From Bryobacteraceae bacterium (GTDB lineage Bacteria; Acidobacteriota; Terriglobia; Bryobacterales; Bryobacteraceae): 64,000 bases of DNA. A program made the translations under genes and the position numbers. Location: positions 148,306 through 212,305 of the forward strand of contig CBDDDT010000005.1 in assembly GCA_965226755.1 (NCBI GenBank), written 5' to 3'. The stretch's first letter is position 1, and every line of letters starts with the position of its first letter. A model generated the notes under the pieces. It saw nothing but the letters and a program-made list of their open reading frames with translations, was not told the DNA's origin and ran no database searches. Shown one piece after another: positions 45,067-54,579 of this stretch.

Positions 45067-46224
45067 TTAGGGGATTTGAAACATCCCCATAAGCGCATTT
45101 CCGGCCACCGCGGCGATGCCGATCGGGATCAGCCACTTCCAGCCGAGGCGCATCAGTTGGTCGTAACGCAGCCGGGGAAACGTGGCGCGGCACCAGATGG
45201 CGGCGTATAGAAAGGATAGTACTTTCACTAAGAACCAGAAGAGTCCGGAGAGAGCCAGATTCACCGACGGGAAGAGAAAAGAGACGCCCAATAGCAGGGA
45301 GAGCGCGGCGAGTCCGAACAGAATGGCGCGGAAGATGGGGATCTCCGGCTTCCGCGCGAGCCAGAACATGCCGGCGGCAATGGCGACAAAGACGAGGGCC
45401 GGAGCGCCAAAACCAAGCGGATAATCCAGCCAGCGCACATTCGGAAACGGACGCAGCCATCCACCCCAGAACAGGGTGGCGGCCACGGCGCAGGCGATGA
45501 ACAAGTTGGCGTACTCGGCGAGCATGAAGAAGGCGAAGCGCATACCGCTGTACTCGAGGTGATAGCCGCCGGCGAGTTCCGATTCCGCTTCGGGGAGATC
45601 GAAAGGCGCGCGGTTGGATTCGGCGAGGGCGGCCACGGCGAATAACCCAAACGCCACCAACCCGAAGCCCCAGTGGTCAAAAGCGAACCAAACGCGCCGC
45701 GCCGCCTGGGCCTCGACGATGCCGCGAAGGCGGAGCGTTCCCGCGGACATCAATCCGCAAAGGAGGGCGAAGGAGAGAGCGATCTCATAGCTGACCAGCT
45801 GCGCGGCGCTGCGAAGCGCGCCTAAGAGGGGGTAATGGCTGTTGGACGCCCACCCGCCCAGCACGAGTCCCAAGACGCCGAACGAAGCGGTCGCGACGAT
45901 CAGGAGCAGGCCGACATTCAGATCCGCCACAAAGATGGCGCGGCCGAACGGGAGCACCGCCATGGCGGACAGGGCGCCGGCGGTCGCCATGACGGGGGCC
46001 AGACGAAAGACGACGGGATCGGCGGCCGAAGGGACGATGTCCTCTTTCAACAAGAGTTTCAGTGCGTCCGCCACGCCCTGCAAGACGCCGTGGGGGCCGA
46101 CGCGCATGGGACCGAGGCGGCCCTGCATGTCCGCCAGGACCTTACGCTCCAGAAGAGTCAGGTACAGGATGAACGGCGGAAATAGAAGGACAATGGCGAC
46201 CGCGGTGATGAGGGAAGCGATCAT
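45067..46224 (-). CDS. nuoH: NADH-quinone oxidoreductase subunit H
   Basis: ERKVLADMQGRLGP, ADALKLLLKED, AAQLVSYE, NRAPFDLPEAESEL, PRLRYDQLM. Confidence 0.97.
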   Translation of the reverse strand: MIASLITAVAIVLLFPPFILYLTLLERKVLADMQGRLGPMRVGPHGVLQGVADALKLLLKEDIVPSAADPVVFRLAPVMATAGALSAMAVLPFGRAIFVADLNVGLLLIVATASFGVLGLVLGGWASNSHYPLLGALRSAAQLVSYEIALSFALLCGLMSAGTLRLRGIVEAQAARRVWFAFDHWGFGLVAFGLFAVAALAESNRAPFDLPEAESELAGGYHLEYSGMRFAFFMLAEYANLFIACAVAATLFWGGWLRPFPNVRWLDYPLGFGAPALVFVAIAAGMFWLARKPEIPIFRAILFGLAALSLLLGVSFLFPSVNLALSGLFWFLVKVLSFLYAAIWCRATFPRLRYDQLMRLGWKWLIPIGIAAVAGNALMGMFQIP

Positions 46225-46227
46225 GCT

Positions 46228-47655
46228 CTATTTGATCGCTTCCTGGGCAAAGCGCAGAACGGGCTCCGGAAAAAGGCCCGCGATCAACGTCACGGCGGCG
46301 CTGGCGCCCAACGCCACGCTCAGACCCCAAGGCGCGCGGGGCCGTTCGGTTCCGACCTCTGGCTGGAGAAAAAGGAAGCGGATCAGCCGGAAGTAGTAAA
46401 AACAGGACACGGCGATGTAGAGGACGGCGACGGTCGCCAGCCCGTAATGCCCGGTCTGCATCAGGGCGAGCGCAATATAGTACTTGCCCCAAAAGCCGGC
46501 GGTGGGGGGAATGCCGGCGAGCGAGAGCAGAAACAGGAGCATGGCCAACGCATAGGCCGGGCTCTTGCGCATAAGTCCCGCGAGGTCCGAAACGTCTTCG
46601 CCTAAACCGTGGCCGCGCTCAAGAGCGATCACGACGGCGAACGCGCCGACGTTGCTGACGCCATAGACCAGGAGGTAAAGCGCGAGGCCGTCGCGGCCGG
46701 TCTGGTTGCCCGCCACGACGCCCAGCAACATGTAACCGGCATGCGCGATGGAGCTATAGGCCAGCAGGCGTTTCAGGTTGGTCTGGGTGAGCGCGGCGAA
46801 ATTGCCGATGGTGAGCGTGAGCACGGCCGCGATGCTCAGCAGGGGACCCCAGAGGGCGCGCGCGCTTTCCAGCGCTCCGGGCAGGAGGCGCATCAGCAAA
46901 GCGACGGACGCCGCTTTGGAGGCGACGGAAAGATAGGCGGTGATGGCGGAAGGCGCGCCTTCGTAGGCGTCAGGCGTCCACATGTGGAAAGGCGCGGCGG
47001 AAATCTTAAACAGCAGCCCCACGGTGACGGCGGCGATGGCGACGAGGAGCACCGGGTCACGCGGATCGCGGGCGGCGGCGGCGGCCGACACATCGCGCAG
47101 CAGCGTGGATCCGGAGATCCCGAACAGGAGCGAAAAGCCGTACGCGAGAATGGCGCTGGAAAAGCCGCCGAGCAGGAGAAACTTGATGGCCGCCTCGGTG
47201 GACCGGCGATCTCCGCGGCCGAAGGCGACGAGGACGTAGAAGCTGATGGCCATCAGTTCCAGGCCTAGAAACAAAGTGATGAGATCGGCCCCGGCGGCAA
47301 GGAAGAACATGCCGGTCTGGGCGAACAGGAGCATGGCGAGATGCTCGGCTCGGCGGTCACGCGAGACAAGCACGACCAGCGCCGCCGTTCCGGTGAACAA
47401 CCAGTTGAAGAATAGGGCGAACGAATCGATGGTTAACGCGCCGTGGAACCCGACGAGTTCGAGCGACCCGGCGCCATGCAGCCAGGCCTGCTGGCGCACC
47501 AGAGCGACGGCGGTGAACGTGAGTCCGGCGAGAGCGAGAAACAGGGGAGCGCGCGACATCCGGCCGCCGGCAAAGCGCAACAGGAGCAGGGCGCATGCGA
47601 ACAGGGCGGGCATCAGGCCCGGCAGCAACGCCAGATGGTCCGCGCTGCTGTACAT
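46228..47655 (-). CDS. nuoN: NADH-quinone oxidoreductase subunit N
   Basis: LGLELMAIS, EAAIKFLLLG, FKISAAPFHMWTPDAYEGAP, KRLLAYSSIAHAG. Start moved to ATG 47655. Confidence 0.95.
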   Translation of the reverse strand: MYSSADHLALLPGLMPALFACALLLLRFAGGRMSRAPLFLALAGLTFTAVALVRQQAWLHGAGSLELVGFHGALTIDSFALFFNWLFTGTAALVVLVSRDRRAEHLAMLLFAQTGMFFLAAGADLITLFLGLELMAISFYVLVAFGRGDRRSTEAAIKFLLLGGFSSAILAYGFSLLFGISGSTLLRDVSAAAAARDPRDPVLLVAIAAVTVGLLFKISAAPFHMWTPDAYEGAPSAITAYLSVASKAASVALLMRLLPGALESARALWGPLLSIAAVLTLTIGNFAALTQTNLKRLLAYSSIAHAGYMLLGVVAGNQTGRDGLALYLLVYGVSNVGAFAVVIALERGHGLGEDVSDLAGLMRKSPAYALAMLLFLLSLAGIPPTAGFWGKYYIALALMQTGHYGLATVAVLYIAVSCFYYFRLIRFLFLQPEVGTERPRAPWGLSVALGASAAVTLIAGLFPEPVLRFAQEAIK

Positions 47656-49151
47656 TACGGCACCGGCGTTCCATGGACGCGCGCCACGATGGCGGCGACG
47701 GGCCGCCGCAGCAGATCGAAATAGGGTTTCGGGTAGATGCCGATGGAGATGGCCCATAACACCAGCGGCATGACGATCCACATCTCGCGCGCGTTCAGGT
47801 CCGGCAGCTTGCGGTTGGCCTCATGCCGGATTTCGCCGAGCATGGTCCTTTGATAGAGCCAGAGCATGTACGCCGCCGCCAGGACGATTCCCAAGACCGC
47901 GCAGGCGGCCCAGACGCGGCTGACGGCGAACACGCCCTGCAGAATCGTAAACTCTCCGACGAAGCCGTTGAGCAGGGGCAATCCGGCGGAGGCGAACGCG
48001 GCGATGGCGAAAACCACGGCAAAGCGCGGCATGACGCGGGCGACGCCGCCGTACCCGGCGATCTCCCGCGTGTGGCGGCGCTCGTAGATCATTCCCACCA
48101 GCAGAAAGAGGAGCCCGGTGGTGATTCCATGATTCAATTGCTGGAGGACGCTTCCGGTGAGCCCGGCCTCATTCAGCGCGAAGATCCCGAGCGTACAGAA
48201 GCCCATGTGGCTGACAGACGAGTAGGCGATCAGTTTCTTCCAATCGCGCTGCATCAGGCTCACGAGCGCGCCATAGAGGATGGCGATGATGGAAAGAACG
48301 GCCATGATCTCGACCACGATACGATCCGCGGACGCGACGGGCAGCAGGGGCAAGGAGAACCGAATGAAGCCGTAGGTTCCCATTTTGAGGAGCAGGCTGG
48401 CGAGCACGACGGAGCCGCCGGTGGGCGCCTCCACATGGGCGTCGGGAAGCCAGGTGTGGAACGGGAACATCGGAACTTTGATGGCGAATCCGCAGAACAG
48501 AGCCCAAAAGATCCACTGCTGCGCGACAGGCGCCAGGTTGAGCTTCAGCAGGTCCGCAATTTCGAAGGAGTAGAACCCGTAGCGCTGGAAGTGAAGGAAG
48601 TAGAGGGCCAGCAGCCCGAGCAGCATCAACACCGATCCGGTGAGGGTGTAGAGAAAGAATTTAATGGCCGCGTGCAGGCGGCGCGGTCCGCCCCAGATGC
48701 CGATGATGAAGTACATCGGGATCAGCACGGCTTCGAAGAAAACGTAGAAGAGGAACGCGTCAAGCGACAGGAAGACGCCCAGGATCCCGGCTTCGAGCAG
48801 CAAGAAGAGCGCGAAGAATTCCTTGAGTCGCTCTTCAATGGTCCAGGAGGCCAGCAACGCCAAGGGCAGGATGACGGCCGAGAGCAAGACGAGCAGCAGG
48901 CTGATCCCGTCGACTCCGAGCGAGTAATCGATTCCCAGAGAGGGCACCCAGGGGATGCGCTCCGCAAACTGGAATCCGGCGGCGTCCGGCTCGAACGCGC
49001 GCAGGAGGATGAGCGCGAGGACCAAGGTGAGAAGCGAGGCGCCGATGGCGACCAGCCGCAGCGCGCGGCGGTTCCGCCCAGGAACACAGAGCAATACGGC
49101 GAGCCCGGCGACCGGCGTCACGAGCAGAGACGTGAGGATGTGCGGCATCAC
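47655..49151 (-). CDS. nuoM: NADH-quinone oxidoreductase subunit M
   Basis: LGVDGISL, FFEAVLIPMYFIIGIWGG, IKVPMFPFHTWLPDAHVEAP, KKLIAYSSVSHMG. Confidence 0.97.
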   Translation of the reverse strand: MMPHILTSLLVTPVAGLAVLLCVPGRNRRALRLVAIGASLLTLVLALILLRAFEPDAAGFQFAERIPWVPSLGIDYSLGVDGISLLLVLLSAVILPLALLASWTIEERLKEFFALFLLLEAGILGVFLSLDAFLFYVFFEAVLIPMYFIIGIWGGPRRLHAAIKFFLYTLTGSVLMLLGLLALYFLHFQRYGFYSFEIADLLKLNLAPVAQQWIFWALFCGFAIKVPMFPFHTWLPDAHVEAPTGGSVVLASLLLKMGTYGFIRFSLPLLPVASADRIVVEIMAVLSIIAILYGALVSLMQRDWKKLIAYSSVSHMGFCTLGIFALNEAGLTGSVLQQLNHGITTGLLFLLVGMIYERRHTREIAGYGGVARVMPRFAVVFAIAAFASAGLPLLNGFVGEFTILQGVFAVSRVWAACAVLGIVLAAAYMLWLYQRTMLGEIRHEANRKLPDLNAREMWIVMPLVLWAISIGIYPKPYFDLLRRPVAAIVARVHGTPVP

Positions 49152-49175
49152 GAGAGCGACATCATTTGCGCCTCA

Positions 49176-51125
49176 TCAGTGAACCCAAACCAACCAGCCC
49201 AGCATGGCGCCGAGGCCGAGGGTGATCCACCAGGCGTATTGGGAGAAAACGCCGGTCTGCAACGCGCGGACCGGCAGGGAGGAAGCGCGGACAAAGAAAG
49301 CGAGGGCGCGCACGGCGCCATCCACCACAAAGCGGTCGCAGGCCGAAGAGAAGCGCCCGGCGCCGCGGGCCAGAGAGCCGACGCCGAGCACGCCGGAATC
49401 GAGAATGGCGTCGTCGAAGCGGGCGAGCGCGCGTCCGCCGCCTCGCGCCAATCCCCGCACGAATACGAAATGGTAGAGGCGATCGAGATACCACTCCTCG
49501 GAAAGAACGCCGTGCAGAGGCTTAAGCGCCTGTTCCAGGTTGCTGGGGATTTCGGGACGGTGGTGGTAAAGGTAACGCGCGAGCGCGAAGCCGATCAGGG
49601 CGACGGCGGCCGAGGTTCCGGTCAAGATCCACTCACTGCCGGGCGCGGTATGAGGAGTATGTCCGGAACCCGCGAACACGGGGCTGAGCCAATGCTCGAA
49701 CGAATGCATCCACGCGGGACCGCGCCATGAGGCGGGCACGCCGATCCAGCCTGACATGACGCTGGCCGCGGCCAGCACGACCAACGGTCCGGTCATCAAT
49801 CCGGGAGATTCATGGGCGCGGGCGACGCGGGAGTGGGCGACTCCGTAGAACGTGAGGTGCATCAGGCGCCACATGTAGATGGCGGTGAGGCCGCTGGTCA
49901 GCACGCCGATGAAGTAGAGCGGGCGCGCGCCGGCCCCGAAGGTCTCGTTCAGGATGGCGTCCTTGGAGAAAAACCCGGCGAGTCCCGGGATGCCGCTCAG
50001 GGCGACGGCGCCGATGAACATCGTCCAATATGTGAGGGGCATTTTACGGTAGAGTCCGCCCATTTTGCGCAGATCCTGCTCCCCATCGAGCGCGTGAATC
50101 ACCGACCCCGCGCCGAGGAACAGGAGCGCCTTGAAGAAGGCATGGGTGAACAGATGGAACACGGCGACCCACCATGCGCCCACGCCGAGCGCCAGAAACA
50201 TGAAGCCGAGCTGGCTGACGGTCGAATACGCCAGCACGCGTTTGATATCGGTATGGACCAGAGCGGTGGCGGCAGCGAAGATGGCGGTGAAGGCGCCCAC
50301 GGTGGCCACCAGAACCGCGGCCGGATGCGAAGCCGCAAACAGCGCGCTGGAGCGGGCGATCAGGTAGACGCCGGCGGTGACCATGGTGGCCGCATGGATC
50401 AGCGCGGAGACGGGAACGGGGCCCTCCATGGCGTCCGGCAGCCAGACATGCAAGGGAAACTGGGCCGATTTTCCGGCCGCTCCGAAAAAGAAAAGAAGCG
50501 CTACCCATGCCAGGGAAGAGCCGTTCATCCCCGGCGCTTTGGCCAGGAAGCCGACGGAGCCGGTGACCGCAAACAGCCACAGAATGCCCATGAGGAACGA
50601 CGCGTCTCCGATGCGATTCACCAGAAACGCCTTCAAGCCGGCACGCGCGGCGGCGGGGCGCCCGTAATCAAACCCGACCAGCAGATAACTGCACAGCCCG
50701 ACGCCTTCCCATCCTGCAAACAGCAGCGCATAGTTGTCGGCCAGCAGCAGGAGCAGCATGAGGCTCACGAAGAGATTCATGTAGCAGAAAAAGCGCGCCG
50801 CGCCGGGGTCGTCGCGCATGTATTCCACCGCGTAGACGTGGACCAGGGCGCCGACGCCGGTGACGATCAGAATGAGGACGCCGCTCAGCGGATCGAGCAG
50901 CAATCCCCAGTGGGCATGGACCAGCGGAAGCCAATCACCATAGATCACTTCCCAATGGCGGTTGGGCAGATCGCGGAGCTGCAGGAACGCGACCAGCGCG
51001 GCGACGAAAGCGGCGATGACGCTGCCGGGCGCGAGCCACCGCACCAACTTGCGCGGGGGATTCAGGGCGCACGAGAGCGCGCCCGCCAGCGGGAGCAAGG
51101 GAATCAAGGCCAGAATGCTTACCAC
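49176..51125 (-). CDS. nuoL: NADH-quinone oxidoreductase subunit L with lengthened amphipathic helix
   Basis: [53 protein letters not shown] 51125 overlaps the nuoK stop. Confidence 0.96.
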
Positions 51126-51415
51126 TTGAGGAGATTCACCTCGTCGGTCAGGACGGTCTTGCGATGGCGGAACAGCGCGATCAGAATGGCCAGACCGACC
51201 GCGGCCTCGGCGACCGCGTCGGCGATTACAAACAGGGCGAAAATCTGGCCCCGCGTGGTGGCCCAGTGCTGGGAGAACGCCACGAGATTGATATTGACGG
51301 CGTTCAACATCAGTTCGATCGACATCAGGACGACGACGATGCTGCGGCGCAGGAGCACGCCGGCCACGCCGATCGAGAGCAAAATGGCGCTGAGCAAGAT
51401 GTAACGGCCGGTCAC
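51119..51415 (-). CDS. nuoK: NADH-quinone oxidoreductase subunit K
   Basis: [18 protein letters not shown] and AEAAVGLAI. Confidence 0.96.
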
Positions 51416-51900
51416 GCTTCGCCTCGCGCGAGCACCACGGCGCCGACCAGGGCGGCCAGCAGCAGGATGGAGACAATCTCAAAGGGCAGCTGATATTCGA
51501 GCAGCAGCATGGCGCCGATCGCCTCCGTGTTCAACCGCGGCATTTCTCCGGAAGCGGGCGGGAGCGCCACGGAGCGGAGCATCCACAAGAGTTCCACGCA
51601 GGCGAAGCCCGCGCCGGCTAATCCGACGGGCCACCATCTGGTGAACCGGCGTTCCCCCTGGGCGCGGTCCAGATTGACCAGCATGATAACGAACAGAAAC
51701 AGCAGCACAATGCCGCCCGCGTAGACGATCAGCTGGGCGGCGAACAGAAACTCCGCCCGGGTTTGCAGGAAGATGCCGGCCACTCCCAGCAGCGAGGCGA
51801 GCAGTCCCAAAGCGCAGTGCACCGGGTTTCGCAAGGAAACCGTGAGCAGCGCGCCCACGAGCGTCAGGGCCGCGAAAGCGTAGAAGAAAGCAAGAGCCAA
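51412..51900 (-). CDS. nuoJ: NADH-quinone oxidoreductase subunit J
   Basis: [38 protein letters not shown]. Confidence 0.95.
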
Positions 51901-51968
51901 TCGTTCATTATGAACGGCTTACAAAAGCGGCAGGGATGCCAGGGCAGCGAATGGCGGTTTTTCCGGCG

Positions 51969-52436
51969 TTAGCGGGGGTACTCGACGGGACGAGGGCCTT
52001 CTTCGAGCATTTGGCGATTCCAGATCTGCCCCTCGCGGGTGTAGGACGCGAGTTCGAAATCCTGCGTGAGTTCCAGAGCGTCTACGGGGCACGCGTCTTC
52101 GCACAACCCGCAAAACATGCAGCGGGACAGATCATAAGTGAACTCGATCAGATCTTTGCGGCGGGTCTGTTCGTTGCGCTCGCTCATTACGACGATCAGG
52201 TTCTCCGGGCAGGCGATGGCGCAGAGATTACAAGAGATACACAGCGTTTCGCCGTCCTGGGGATTGATGTTCAGCCGGGGCGCGCCGCGGTAGCGTTCGG
52301 AGACGGGAGCACGCTCCAGCGGATACTGCTCGGTCACGATCTCCCGCGGCCGCTGGGTTCGAAACGTTACGAACAGCCCGCGAATCAAATCGATGAAGGG
52401 CAGTTTCATCCAGACGCTTTCTAATCGTTTCGGCAT
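51969..52436 (-). CDS. nuoI: NADH-quinone oxidoreductase subunit I
   Basis: TEQYP, CISCNLCAIACP and CMFCGLCEDACP 4Fe-4S motifs. Confidence 0.96.
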   Translation of the reverse strand: MPKRLESVWMKLPFIDLIRGLFVTFRTQRPREIVTEQYPLERAPVSERYRGAPRLNINPQDGETLCISCNLCAIACPENLIVVMSERNEQTRRKDLIEFTYDLSRCMFCGLCEDACPVDALELTQDFELASYTREGQIWNRQMLEEGPRPVEYPR

Positions 52437-52501: not shown

Positions 52502-53131
52502 ATGGATTCCCAACAAAACTGTGCTTCCTGGGATGGATTTGAGCGCATCAACCAGTTTGCGCTCGTAGGTTATATACCCGATCCCCTGGGAAGATTTCTG
52601 GACGCGCTCCGTTTGCATTTGGTTCCCGATTGTAAGCCTCACGCCCATGTCACCATTCTCCCTCCAAGGCCGCTCTGCGGCTCCGCGGAAGACGCGGCCC
52701 GTGAGATTCGGCTGGCGGCGCGCGATTTCCAACCGTTCTCGATCCGTCTGGGAGATGTTGCCCGGTTCGAGAAATCCGATGTCATCTATATAGAGATCGC
52801 ATCCGGTTGCTCCGAGCTGAAGGCCATGTACCACGCGATGAACGCGGGCTGCAACTCCTACTGCGAGAAATTCTGCTACTCCCCGCACATCACGCTTGCT
52901 CAGAACCTTCCCGCCGAACTGGTGCAACACACGCTAGACGAGGCGGTCGCCGCCTGGAAGAACTTCCCGTTTGAAAAAGCTTTCCGGGTGGATGTTCTCA
53001 CGTTCGTTCAGAACACGTCGGGCTGCCGCTGGATCGACCTGGAAGAGATGCCTTTGGGCTATCGCACGCCGGGCCGGCCTTCGGGCGTTCTCAATCAAAG
53101 AGACGTGGCTGCGCCGCAACATCAGGCTTAA
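52502..53131 (+). CDS. 2H phosphoesterase (2'-5' RNA ligase family)
   Basis: Two HxT motifs, AHVTIL and PHITLA. Confidence 0.88.
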   Translation: MDSQQNCASWDGFERINQFALVGYIPDPLGRFLDALRLHLVPDCKPHAHVTILPPRPLCGSAEDAAREIRLAARDFQPFSIRLGDVARFEKSDVIYIEIASGCSELKAMYHAMNAGCNSYCEKFCYSPHITLAQNLPAELVQHTLDEAVAAWKNFPFEKAFRVDVLTFVQNTSGCRWIDLEEMPLGYRTPGRPSGVLNQRDVAAPQHQA

Positions 53132-53585
53132 TCCGCGGTTTGGACGGAGCTTTCCGCAGAGGACTTCCGACTACGCTCAGCACCTGGATCGAGAGCAGCG
53201 CCTCGCGGGGCACAAACATCTTCTGATTGTTCGAATAAGGCTCTGGGGGCGTTACGGTGTAGCCCTGGGCGTCGACAACCAGCAGGTTGTTAGGAAGAAT
53301 GCCGTCCAACAGATCGCCGTCGCGGAACTTCATCCGCACCCATAAACCTTCCATTTTGGGCCGGGTCTGAAACAGGCGGGCTTCGATGGGCTCGCGGGCG
53401 CCTTCGAAATCCTTGACGAAGCATACGGACTTAATTTCGCCGTACGCGATGGCGGCCACGTCGCCATCGGGCCTGAGCAACTCAATGCCGGTGGGCTGCT
53501 GATAGGCGTGCGCGCTGACGAATCCGGTCAGCGGCTCGCGATCGAACCGCCGGACAACGACCTTCTTGGTTGTGGATGCCGCCAA
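53091..53585 (-). CDS. Hypothetical protein (DUF6982-like, tentative)
   Basis: KKVVVRRFD, KSVCFVKDF, LWVRMKFRDGDLLDG pattern with an internal two-fold repeat. Confidence 0.75.
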   Translation of the reverse strand: MAASTTKKVVVRRFDREPLTGFVSAHAYQQPTGIELLRPDGDVAAIAYGEIKSVCFVKDFEGAREPIEARLFQTRPKMEGLWVRMKFRDGDLLDGILPNNLLVVDAQGYTVTPPEPYSNNQKMFVPREALLSIQVLSVVGSPLRKAPSKPRIKPDVAAQPRLFD

Positions 53586-53667
53586 ATATAGCCGACCTAG
53601 CTGTCCGTCAATCTTACTTCCGATTTATGTTCTAAACATTTGTGGGGATATTGTATCATTGGCTTCG

Positions 53668-54579
53668 ATGATCCCGGGTCCCTCGTCCAAGACCGGACCG
53701 CTTCAAGCCACCGTGACGGCCTATCTCCACCATTGCCGGGTGGAACGGGGACTGGCTGCGAATACGATTGATGCTTATCGAACGGATCTCCAGCGTTTCG
53801 AAGCATTTGGGGGTGACGACCTTATCCATTGCATGAATGCTGAATCTGTTCAGAAATACATTCGTTCACTGTATGGAACGGGTCTCAGCAGCCGGTCAAT
53901 CGCGCGGCACATCGCCTCTCTGCGCGGGTTATTCAAATTTCTCTTGAGCGAAGGACGCATCACGGCGGATCCTACCGAGCACCTGCAGACACCTCAGCAG
54001 TGGCAATCGATTCCCCGGTTTCTGAGCCGCGACCAGGTGGAAGCTCTTTTGAACGCGCCGAAACCATCCGAGCCAACGGGTTTGCGCAACCGGGCTATGC
54101 TGCAGCTTCTGTATGCGACGGGACTGCGCGTGTCGGAGTTGTGCAAGGTGAGGACAGCCGATCTGAACCGCGACATGGGAATCGTCACGGTGCTCGGAAA
54201 GGGCAATAAGCAACGCCTGGTGCCGGTGGGAGACCACGCGCTGGCGGCGGTGGAGACATACCTGAACAAGGCGCGCCCTGATCTGCTGCGGGGACGAGTT
54301 TCGCCGTTTCTTTTTGTAACCTCCCGCGGCGGGAGGATGACGCGGCAGGCTTTCTGGAAGTTGATTGTCGCGCACGGTAAGACGGCAGGCATCTTCCAGG
54401 GATTGAGCCCGCACGTTCTGCGGCATAGTTTTGCGACCCATCTGCTCGAAGGGGGCGCAGACCTTCGCAGTCTCCAGACGATGCTCGGCCATTCGGACAT
54501 CGCAACCACACAGATATATACCCACGTCATGCGGTCGCGTCTTCGCACCGTAGTTGACCAGCACCACCCCCGCGCCTAA
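53668..54579 (+). CDS. xerD: Site-specific tyrosine recombinase XerD
   Basis: NTIDAYRTDL, LYATGLRVSEL, GKGNKQRLVP, HVLRHSFATHLL, LGHSDIATTQIY. Start moved to ATG 53668. Confidence 0.95.
   Translation: MIPGPSSKTGPLQATVTAYLHHCRVERGLAANTIDAYRTDLQRFEAFGGDDLIHCMNAESVQKYIRSLYGTGLSSRSIARHIASLRGLFKFLLSEGRITADPTEHLQTPQQWQSIPRFLSRDQVEALLNAPKPSEPTGLRNRAMLQLLYATGLRVSELCKVRTADLNRDMGIVTVLGKGNKQRLVPVGDHALAAVETYLNKARPDLLRGRVSPFLFVTSRGGRMTRQAFWKLIVAHGKTAGIFQGLSPHVLRHSFATHLLEGGADLRSLQTMLGHSDIATTQIYTHVMRSRLRTVVDQHHPRA

Follow-up and report, generated by a model that had tools for sequence, protein, structure and literature searches.

The window analyzed here, a 64,000-nucleotide stretch of a Bryobacteraceae genome (assembly GCA_965226755.1, contig CBDDDT010000005.1, positions 148,306 to 212,305), carries a tightly packed seven-gene complex I operon with the order nuoI-J-K-L-M-N-H and a single nuoM (Table 1). 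The Pfam and NCBIfam assignments agree with a sequence-only reading of the same DNA, which had proposed that the cluster encodes only the L, M, and N antiporter-like subunits. The nuoL product also matched the NuoL equivalog model TIGR01974 with 655 bits (cut-off 407.5); its gene starts with a GTG that overlaps the nuoK stop, and an identical 649-aa protein is already present in records.

Within this operon, nuoH stands at the end rather than ahead of nuoI (window 45067-52436). Bryobacterales relatives with NuoL identities as low as 54% (L008-L019, L010, and L109) keep the nuoH-last order, and other Acidobacteriota have the order A-(B)-C-D-H-I-J-K-L-M-N. In the Pfam match of NuoH, residues 8-373 cover 292 profile positions, which implies ~70 inserted residues compared to the family model. 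Upstream of nuoI (window 52502-54579) lie genes for an XerD-like integrase, a DUF6982 protein, and a 2H phosphoesterase, an arrangement also kept in Bryobacterales relatives (L008:5594-7635; L009:5732-7684).

Table 1. The nuo operon of the window and the features of the lateral helix HL of its NuoL (positions are those of the window).
Feature	Position	Strand	Size or residues	Basis and remarks
nuoI, first gene of the operon	51969-52436	minus		NCBIfam TIGR01971, 116.6 bits (cut-off 113)
nuoJ	51412-51900	minus		Pfam PF00499
nuoK	51119-51415	minus		Pfam PF00420
nuoL	49176-51125	minus	649 aa	NCBIfam NF005141, 663.9 bits (cut-off 556); Pfam PF00662 and PF00361
Main part of lateral helix HL (LDRLY...LQTG)	49251-49487	minus	L547-G625	Spacer of 70 residues
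HL module 1	49347-49424	minus	568-593	D571 and D576 invariant; matches the E. coli D563-P564-L565-N566 kink
HL module 2, duplicated copy	49269-49346	minus	594-619	D597, D602, and G603 invariant; PDB segment aligns to both modules
TM16, C-terminal membrane anchor after the conserved QTG..Y	49182-49244	minus	628-648	Helix in the AlphaFold2 model
nuoM, the only nuoM of the cluster	47655-49151	minus	498 aa	NCBIfam TIGR01972, 609 bits; start 24 nt after the nuoL stop
nuoN	46228-47655	minus	475 aa	NCBIfam TIGR01770, 395 bits (cut-off 332.6); ATG overlaps the nuoM stop
nuoH, last gene of the operon	45067-46224	minus	385 aa	Pfam PF00146, 9e-110; start 3 nt after nuoN

The window sits on contig 5 of a 5.32 Mb assembly that is 99.35% complete. 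Across this genome, a PF00361 search recovered six antiporter-like genes, i.e., the L, M, and N genes of the window and those of a canonical cluster on contig 6 (C6:153260-166243; nuoA-C-D-E-F-G-H-J-K-L-M-N), and these two complete sets leave no spare nuoM in the genome. A single set of nuoE, nuoF, and nuoG was found genome-wide, while second copies exist for nuoA, B, C, D, and I. The window operon can thus be assigned as the membrane arm of a second, NuoEFG-less (11-subunit) complex I, with its own A, B, C, D, and H to N subunits and no E, F, or G of its own. In this it resembles the 11-subunit, ferredoxin-linked relatives (cyanobacterial NDH-1 and Fpo-type enzymes), which also lack NuoEFG, although the single nuoEFG set of the genome could in principle be shared with the window enzyme. 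Neither set has all its nuo genes in one place: nuoB and nuoI are missing from the canonical contig 6 cluster, a second nuoC-nuoD pair stands alone on contig 7 (C7:179943-181555), and individual copies of nuoA, nuoB (two copies), and nuoI are found elsewhere (C2:238608-238964, C2:44942-45271, C3:2147692-2148015, and C3:515093-515479). An Mrp subunit serving as fourth pump was considered and rejected for this genome, since no Mrp-type gene was present among the six PF00361 matches.

The window NuoL is distinguished by the length of its lateral helix HL. Counted with both motifs, the span from LDRLY to LQTG comprises 79 residues, the number given in the sequence-only reading; the residues actually lying between the two motifs, as that reading had worded it, number 70. 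Two similar 12-residue elements begin at D571 and D597, and their spacing of exactly 26 residues was as previously described. By comparison, the same spacer is 45 residues in the NuoL1 paralogue of this genome and about 41-44 in T. thermophilus Nqo12 and M. smegmatis NuoL. Among 130 NuoLs, spacer length was bimodal, with values of either 41-48 or 70-81 and none in between. Against the 41-48 residues of canonical NuoLs, the alignment yields 26 extra residues by duplication, i.e., the net insertion that had been suggested from the letters alone.

Several comparisons point to the origin of this excess. One segment of the solved NdhF1 (604-613) aligns to both HL copies, as does one segment of P. 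denitrificans Nqo12 (648-660), and canonical NuoLs searched with the long-helix profile give two partial matches with overlapping DNA coordinates. Self-similarity within HL is maximal at an offset of 26, with a family mean BLOSUM score of -0.06 vs about -1.0 at the remaining offsets; for the window NuoL, the score at offset 26 was 0.365, a value equalled at any of 40 offsets in 61 of 5000 shuffles. Judged from these sequence comparisons, a 26-residue module was duplicated in tandem to give the HL excess, and the repeat goes beyond what would be expected by chance. The two 78-nt units share 47% DNA identity (background 33%), and their translations agree at only 4 of 26 positions, which indicates that the duplication is old. 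A recent duplication or an assembly artefact was ruled out by this divergence, together with the persistence of the trait down to ~53-55% protein identity.

Both copies of the module appear to be maintained. When ten distant long-helix NuoLs were aligned (649-aa numbering), the invariant columns included D548 and Y551 (DxxY), D571, D576, D597, D602, and QTG..Y. A D-x4-D(G) signature is thus invariant in both modules, and module 2 is no less conserved than module 1. The flanks of HL and the QTG..Y/TM16 motif are alike in the window NuoL and in canonical NuoL. Position D571 is equivalent to E. coli D563, next to the HL kink at P564-L565-N566 that touches NuoM (Belevich et al., PMC3274701), and the doubled unit thus corresponds to the NuoM-contact module.

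An AlphaFold2 monomer model of NuoL, built with 76 homologues (mean pLDDT 82, pTM 0.80), includes TM15, the lateral helix, and TM16 as helices 495-522, 525-624, and 628-648, respectively, with residues 545-624 predicted as one continuous 80-residue helix (pLDDT 60-75). The best Foldseek matches were NuoL chains (probability 1.0, TM-score 0.76-0.80). Solved canonical NuoL/Nqo12/ND5/NdhF chains (4HE8, 3RKO, 7Z7S, 8E9G, 8QBY, and 6HUM) have the same fold at 37-44% identity to the window NuoL, and share with it the 14 core helices, TM15, HL, and TM16; each of them, however, including the NdhF1 of cyanobacterial NDH-1, has a single D-x4-D module in HL where the window NuoL has two, and no gap-free PDB match to the long helix was found among the solved chains. 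The rmsd to solved chains was 10-11 Å over the whole chain and about 4 Å where the far end of the solved chain is missing, a pattern weakly suggestive of a displaced TM16. If the helix is straight, as in the monomer model, TM16 would lie ~39 Å further from TM15, a shift that would correspond to the width of one antiporter-like subunit.

We next consider how widespread the long helix is and which genes accompany it. The spacer was 69-70 residues in 120 of the 120 closest homologues (identity down to ~53-55%), and relatives on long contigs displayed either I-J-K-L-M-N-H or C-D-I-J-K-L-M-N-H, with one M. A homologue search confined to the helix stretch recovered close relatives only. Full-length matches to the long-helix profile were obtained in at least ~149 of 401 Acidobacteriota species genomes, and 94 of the matching acidobacterial loci were fetched and read for gene order. 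L-M-N was the order in 76 of these, L-M in 11 (nuoN not adjacent, or contig end), and L-M-M-N in 7. The sequence-only reading had taken the lengthened helix as typical of four-pump 2M complex I; single-M complexes, however, commonly have a helix of the same length, which is an observation that this reading had itself named as refuting. Loci with wide flanks (L091-L143) read nuoA-(B)-C-D-H-I-J-K-L-M-N without nuoE, F, and G, and nuoEFG were absent from the sampled long-helix clusters. A long helix with one nuoM was also found in Myxococcota and deltaproteobacterial MAGs (L031 and L061), and 20 Chloroflexota loci were divided into 12 with L-M-M-N and 8 with L-M-N; no helix of three to five modules was seen in these 20 loci. 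Overall, a second nuoM was present in 19 of ~103 long-helix clusters vs none of ~55 canonical-helix clusters. Some variants have a spacer of 79-81 residues, with ~10 extra Pro/Gly-rich residues near the start of HL.

A 26-residue doubling of HL is therefore normal in a very large NuoEFG-less complex I lineage with a single nuoM, common in Acidobacteriota and also present in Dehalococcoidia-like Chloroflexota, Myxococcota, and deltaproteobacterial MAGs. Since this single-nuoM lineage is fixed for the duplication, the extra length is a family trait, and the window nuoL is an ordinary member of the lineage that bears no sign of a missing or lost gene. As a separate observation, four Chloroflexota loci from genomes of 1.4-1.9 Mb (L189-L192, Dehalococcoidia-like) encode a two-module HL in which the modules are 29 rather than 26 residues apart, next to a single nuoM.

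Complete genomes provide a direct view of the available pump subunits. In six single-contig acidobacterial genomes (G110, G325, G258, G073, G334, and G367), the long-helix NuoL was the sole NuoL among the matches listed, and no NuoF homologue was found in any of the six, so that complex I in these organisms cannot use the usual NADH module. Two of them, G110 and G325, hold five PF00361 genes, i.e., L, M, N, and two more, which in G110 sit in an ordinary mrpA-G operon. In Chloroflexota, the 1.7 Mb single-contig genome G537 holds three PF00361 genes and no more; its NuoL matches the long-helix profile over the full length, the long spacer itself having been read in sister genomes. Taken together, complete genomes without a further nuoM, and G537 with its three antiporter-like genes, indicate that the enzyme works from one nuoL, one nuoM, and one nuoN. 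A non-homologous filler subunit was also considered and rejected: clustering of ORFs in and beside 52 long-helix clusters revealed no conserved unknown membrane ORF, and the only recurrent neighbors were NuoB and a downstream atpZ/atpB/atpE group.

The relationship of the window enzyme to 2M complex I is one of shared helix length and different gene content. Passages in papers citing Chadwick, Hemp, Fischer & Orphan 2018 (ISME J 12:2668) describe a NuoL HL lengthening of ~26 residues in 2M complex I (PMC9040806 and PMC6606698), and what these passages give, along with those in PMC7117926 and PMC11636273, corresponds to the window NuoL in both position within HL and length; the link to 2M-type lengthening drawn from the sequence alone was thus well founded. 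As far as the same passages describe them, 2M "clade 3" operons are, like the window cluster, without nuoE and nuoF. The second nuoM that defines 2M complex I is, however, absent from the window cluster and from the genome, and the 2M clusters sampled here (7 Acidobacteriaceae-like and 12 Chloroflexota) carry NuoL lineages other than that of the window. A combination of long helix and single nuoM was already known: Yu, Chadwick, Lingappa & Leadbetter 2022 (mBio, PMC9040806) reported a similar HL insertion in single-nuoM clusters of "Ca. Manganitrophaceae", which they called curious and left unexplained, and the window locus is a further ordinary case. Compared by description only, Complex_I_1 and Complex_I_2 of Manganitrophaceae share with the window an HL insertion of similar length and one nuoM, but have canonical gene content and order, whereas the window set is split, NuoEFG-less, with nuoH last, and from Bryobacterales. 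Apart from the 2M papers, a phrase search of the literature covered here returned no further mention of a NuoL helix described as lengthened, extended, or inserted.

The seven acidobacterial L-M-M-N clusters belong to four genera within a single family (f3, Acidobacteriaceae-like) and have a spacer of 69 residues, with a very different HL sequence (DWLDRxVxxGAV ... DVxxVN). In NuoL-core and L-core+N trees, their NuoLs form a long-branched clade beside E. coli-like canonical NuoLs and far from the window lineage, all trees being FastTree reconstructions in which deep branches are weak and Nitrospira 2M clades are not among the sequences. The L-core+N tree placed 51 of 53 long-helix single-M NuoLs in one group. 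Label changes numbered two in the NuoM tree and two in the L+N tree, vs 11 in the tree of the NuoL core alone, across which the long-helix sequences were scattered. Within family f3 (L130-L143), the second, NuoEFG-less complex I is a 2M cluster in genera g6, g8, g10, and g15, and a long-helix single-nuoM cluster with ~10 extra residues in genera g9, g11, g12, and g18; apparently no sampled f3 genome holds both forms.

How one nuoM goes with a doubled contact module can be explained in several ways. We tentatively prefer, at somewhat less than even confidence, an option already raised in the sequence-only reading, in which the single NuoM polypeptide fills two adjacent strap positions, giving L-M-M-N from three genes. 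According to this proposal, the HL strap would offer four docking positions, two adjacent ones would be occupied by one and the same NuoM polypeptide, and HL would act as a ruler that sets copy number. The outcome would be a four-pump enzyme using a donor whose potential lies below that of NADH, probably ferredoxin, a non-NADH donor being proposed because the six complete genomes with only the long-helix enzyme have no NuoF; the two-nuoM lineages would then be later gene duplications of the one-NuoM-twice state. This reading is preferred because the doubled unit is the NuoM-contact module, because its two copies are equally conserved between unchanged flanks and an unchanged TM16 docking motif, because the spacer stays at 69-70 residues throughout the lineage, and because the added length would, in the model, equal one subunit width. 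In addition, a second nuoM occurs only beside long helices, for which two pre-existing M positions would have offered an easy route. Speaking somewhat against NuoM reuse, none of ~87 main-lineage clusters gained a second nuoM, which would be unexpected if two M positions were long-standing. The pLDDT of HL is also only 60-75, and a monomer model would be blind to a bulge imposed by partner subunits. We know of no solved complex I that uses one antiporter-like subunit twice. Nearly as likely as NuoM reuse is an enzyme with three pumps only, L-M-N as encoded, in which the longer strap would run without a fourth antiporter-like subunit and helix length would not count pumps. In one version, NuoN would underlie module 2, and the TM16 end would dock further along, over NuoK/J/A towards NuoH; in another, the helix would bow or kink. 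This explanation takes the genes at face value, i.e., exactly L, M, and N in main-lineage members and in complete genomes, and both the lack of any second nuoM gain in the ~87 clusters and the lack of subunit reuse in the solved complexes known to us speak for it. The variants with a spacer of 79-81 likewise suggest that the strap is not a strict ruler, and the E. coli HL tolerates flexible inserts of 6-7 residues at some positions (PMC3274701), so that by analogy slack in the strap is possible, to the detriment of the reuse reading. A three-pump enzyme is harder to reconcile with the canonical-like QTG..Y/TM16 motif and preceding stretch, which suggest the same NuoN/NuoK docking site, with an extra length that is one subunit width and a duplicated NuoM-contact module, with a module 2 conserved as well as module 1, and with second nuoM genes being confined to the vicinity of long helices.

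The remaining two explanations, both raised in the sequence-only reading, fared less well. A reduced 2M operon, in which a two-nuoM ancestor lost one gene and kept the long helix, would fit the presence of L-M-M-N clusters with a spacer of 69 in the same phylum, and of others in Chloroflexota, and a "transition toward or away from" 2M-type capacity was raised by Yu et al. 2022 (PMC9040806). In this phylum, however, the NuoLs of 2M clusters are distant from the window lineage: their HL sequence is quite different, and in trees built without Nitrospira-type 2M sequences they fall with E. coli-like canonical NuoLs. The single-M state is also uniform across the main lineage, so that a loss could only have happened very early; we consider this explanation improbable. 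Still more remote, and in our view very unlikely, is a second NuoM supplied in trans, with NuoM1, encoded in the canonical contig 6 cluster, as the fourth pump. Although the genome does hold this second nuoM in a canonical nuoA-N-type cluster, NuoM1 is only 44% identical to NuoM2 of the window and belongs to its own full L-M-N set, and completely sequenced long-helix relatives hold no nuoM beyond their own: their antiporter-like genes are either L, M, and N accompanied by an Mrp operon, or just three in total, which means that the trait cannot depend on another nuoM.

According to the accepted reading, as conveyed in passages of papers citing Chadwick et al. 2018, the 26-residue lengthening makes room for a second NuoM. 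Most of the long-helix clusters sampled here have no second nuoM, and these include complete genomes with three antiporter-like genes. If NuoM reuse is true, it would represent a new assembly principle for complex I, with a changed proton stoichiometry; if strap length and pump number are instead uncoupled, helix length would become a weaker genomic marker of "2M" enzymes. With HL as a ruler and one nuoM product in two positions, the widespread NuoEFG-less class might be a four-pump machine made from three pump genes, and the known 2M enzymes its gene-duplicated descendants, a broader picture that we regard as possible and advance with reserve.

Finally, the genes directly downstream of nuoN were recurrent in many long-helix loci: atpZ/I-like, atpB, and atpE genes follow on the same strand in 26 of 52 loci (e.g., L039:10095-11307 and L064:15288-15617).
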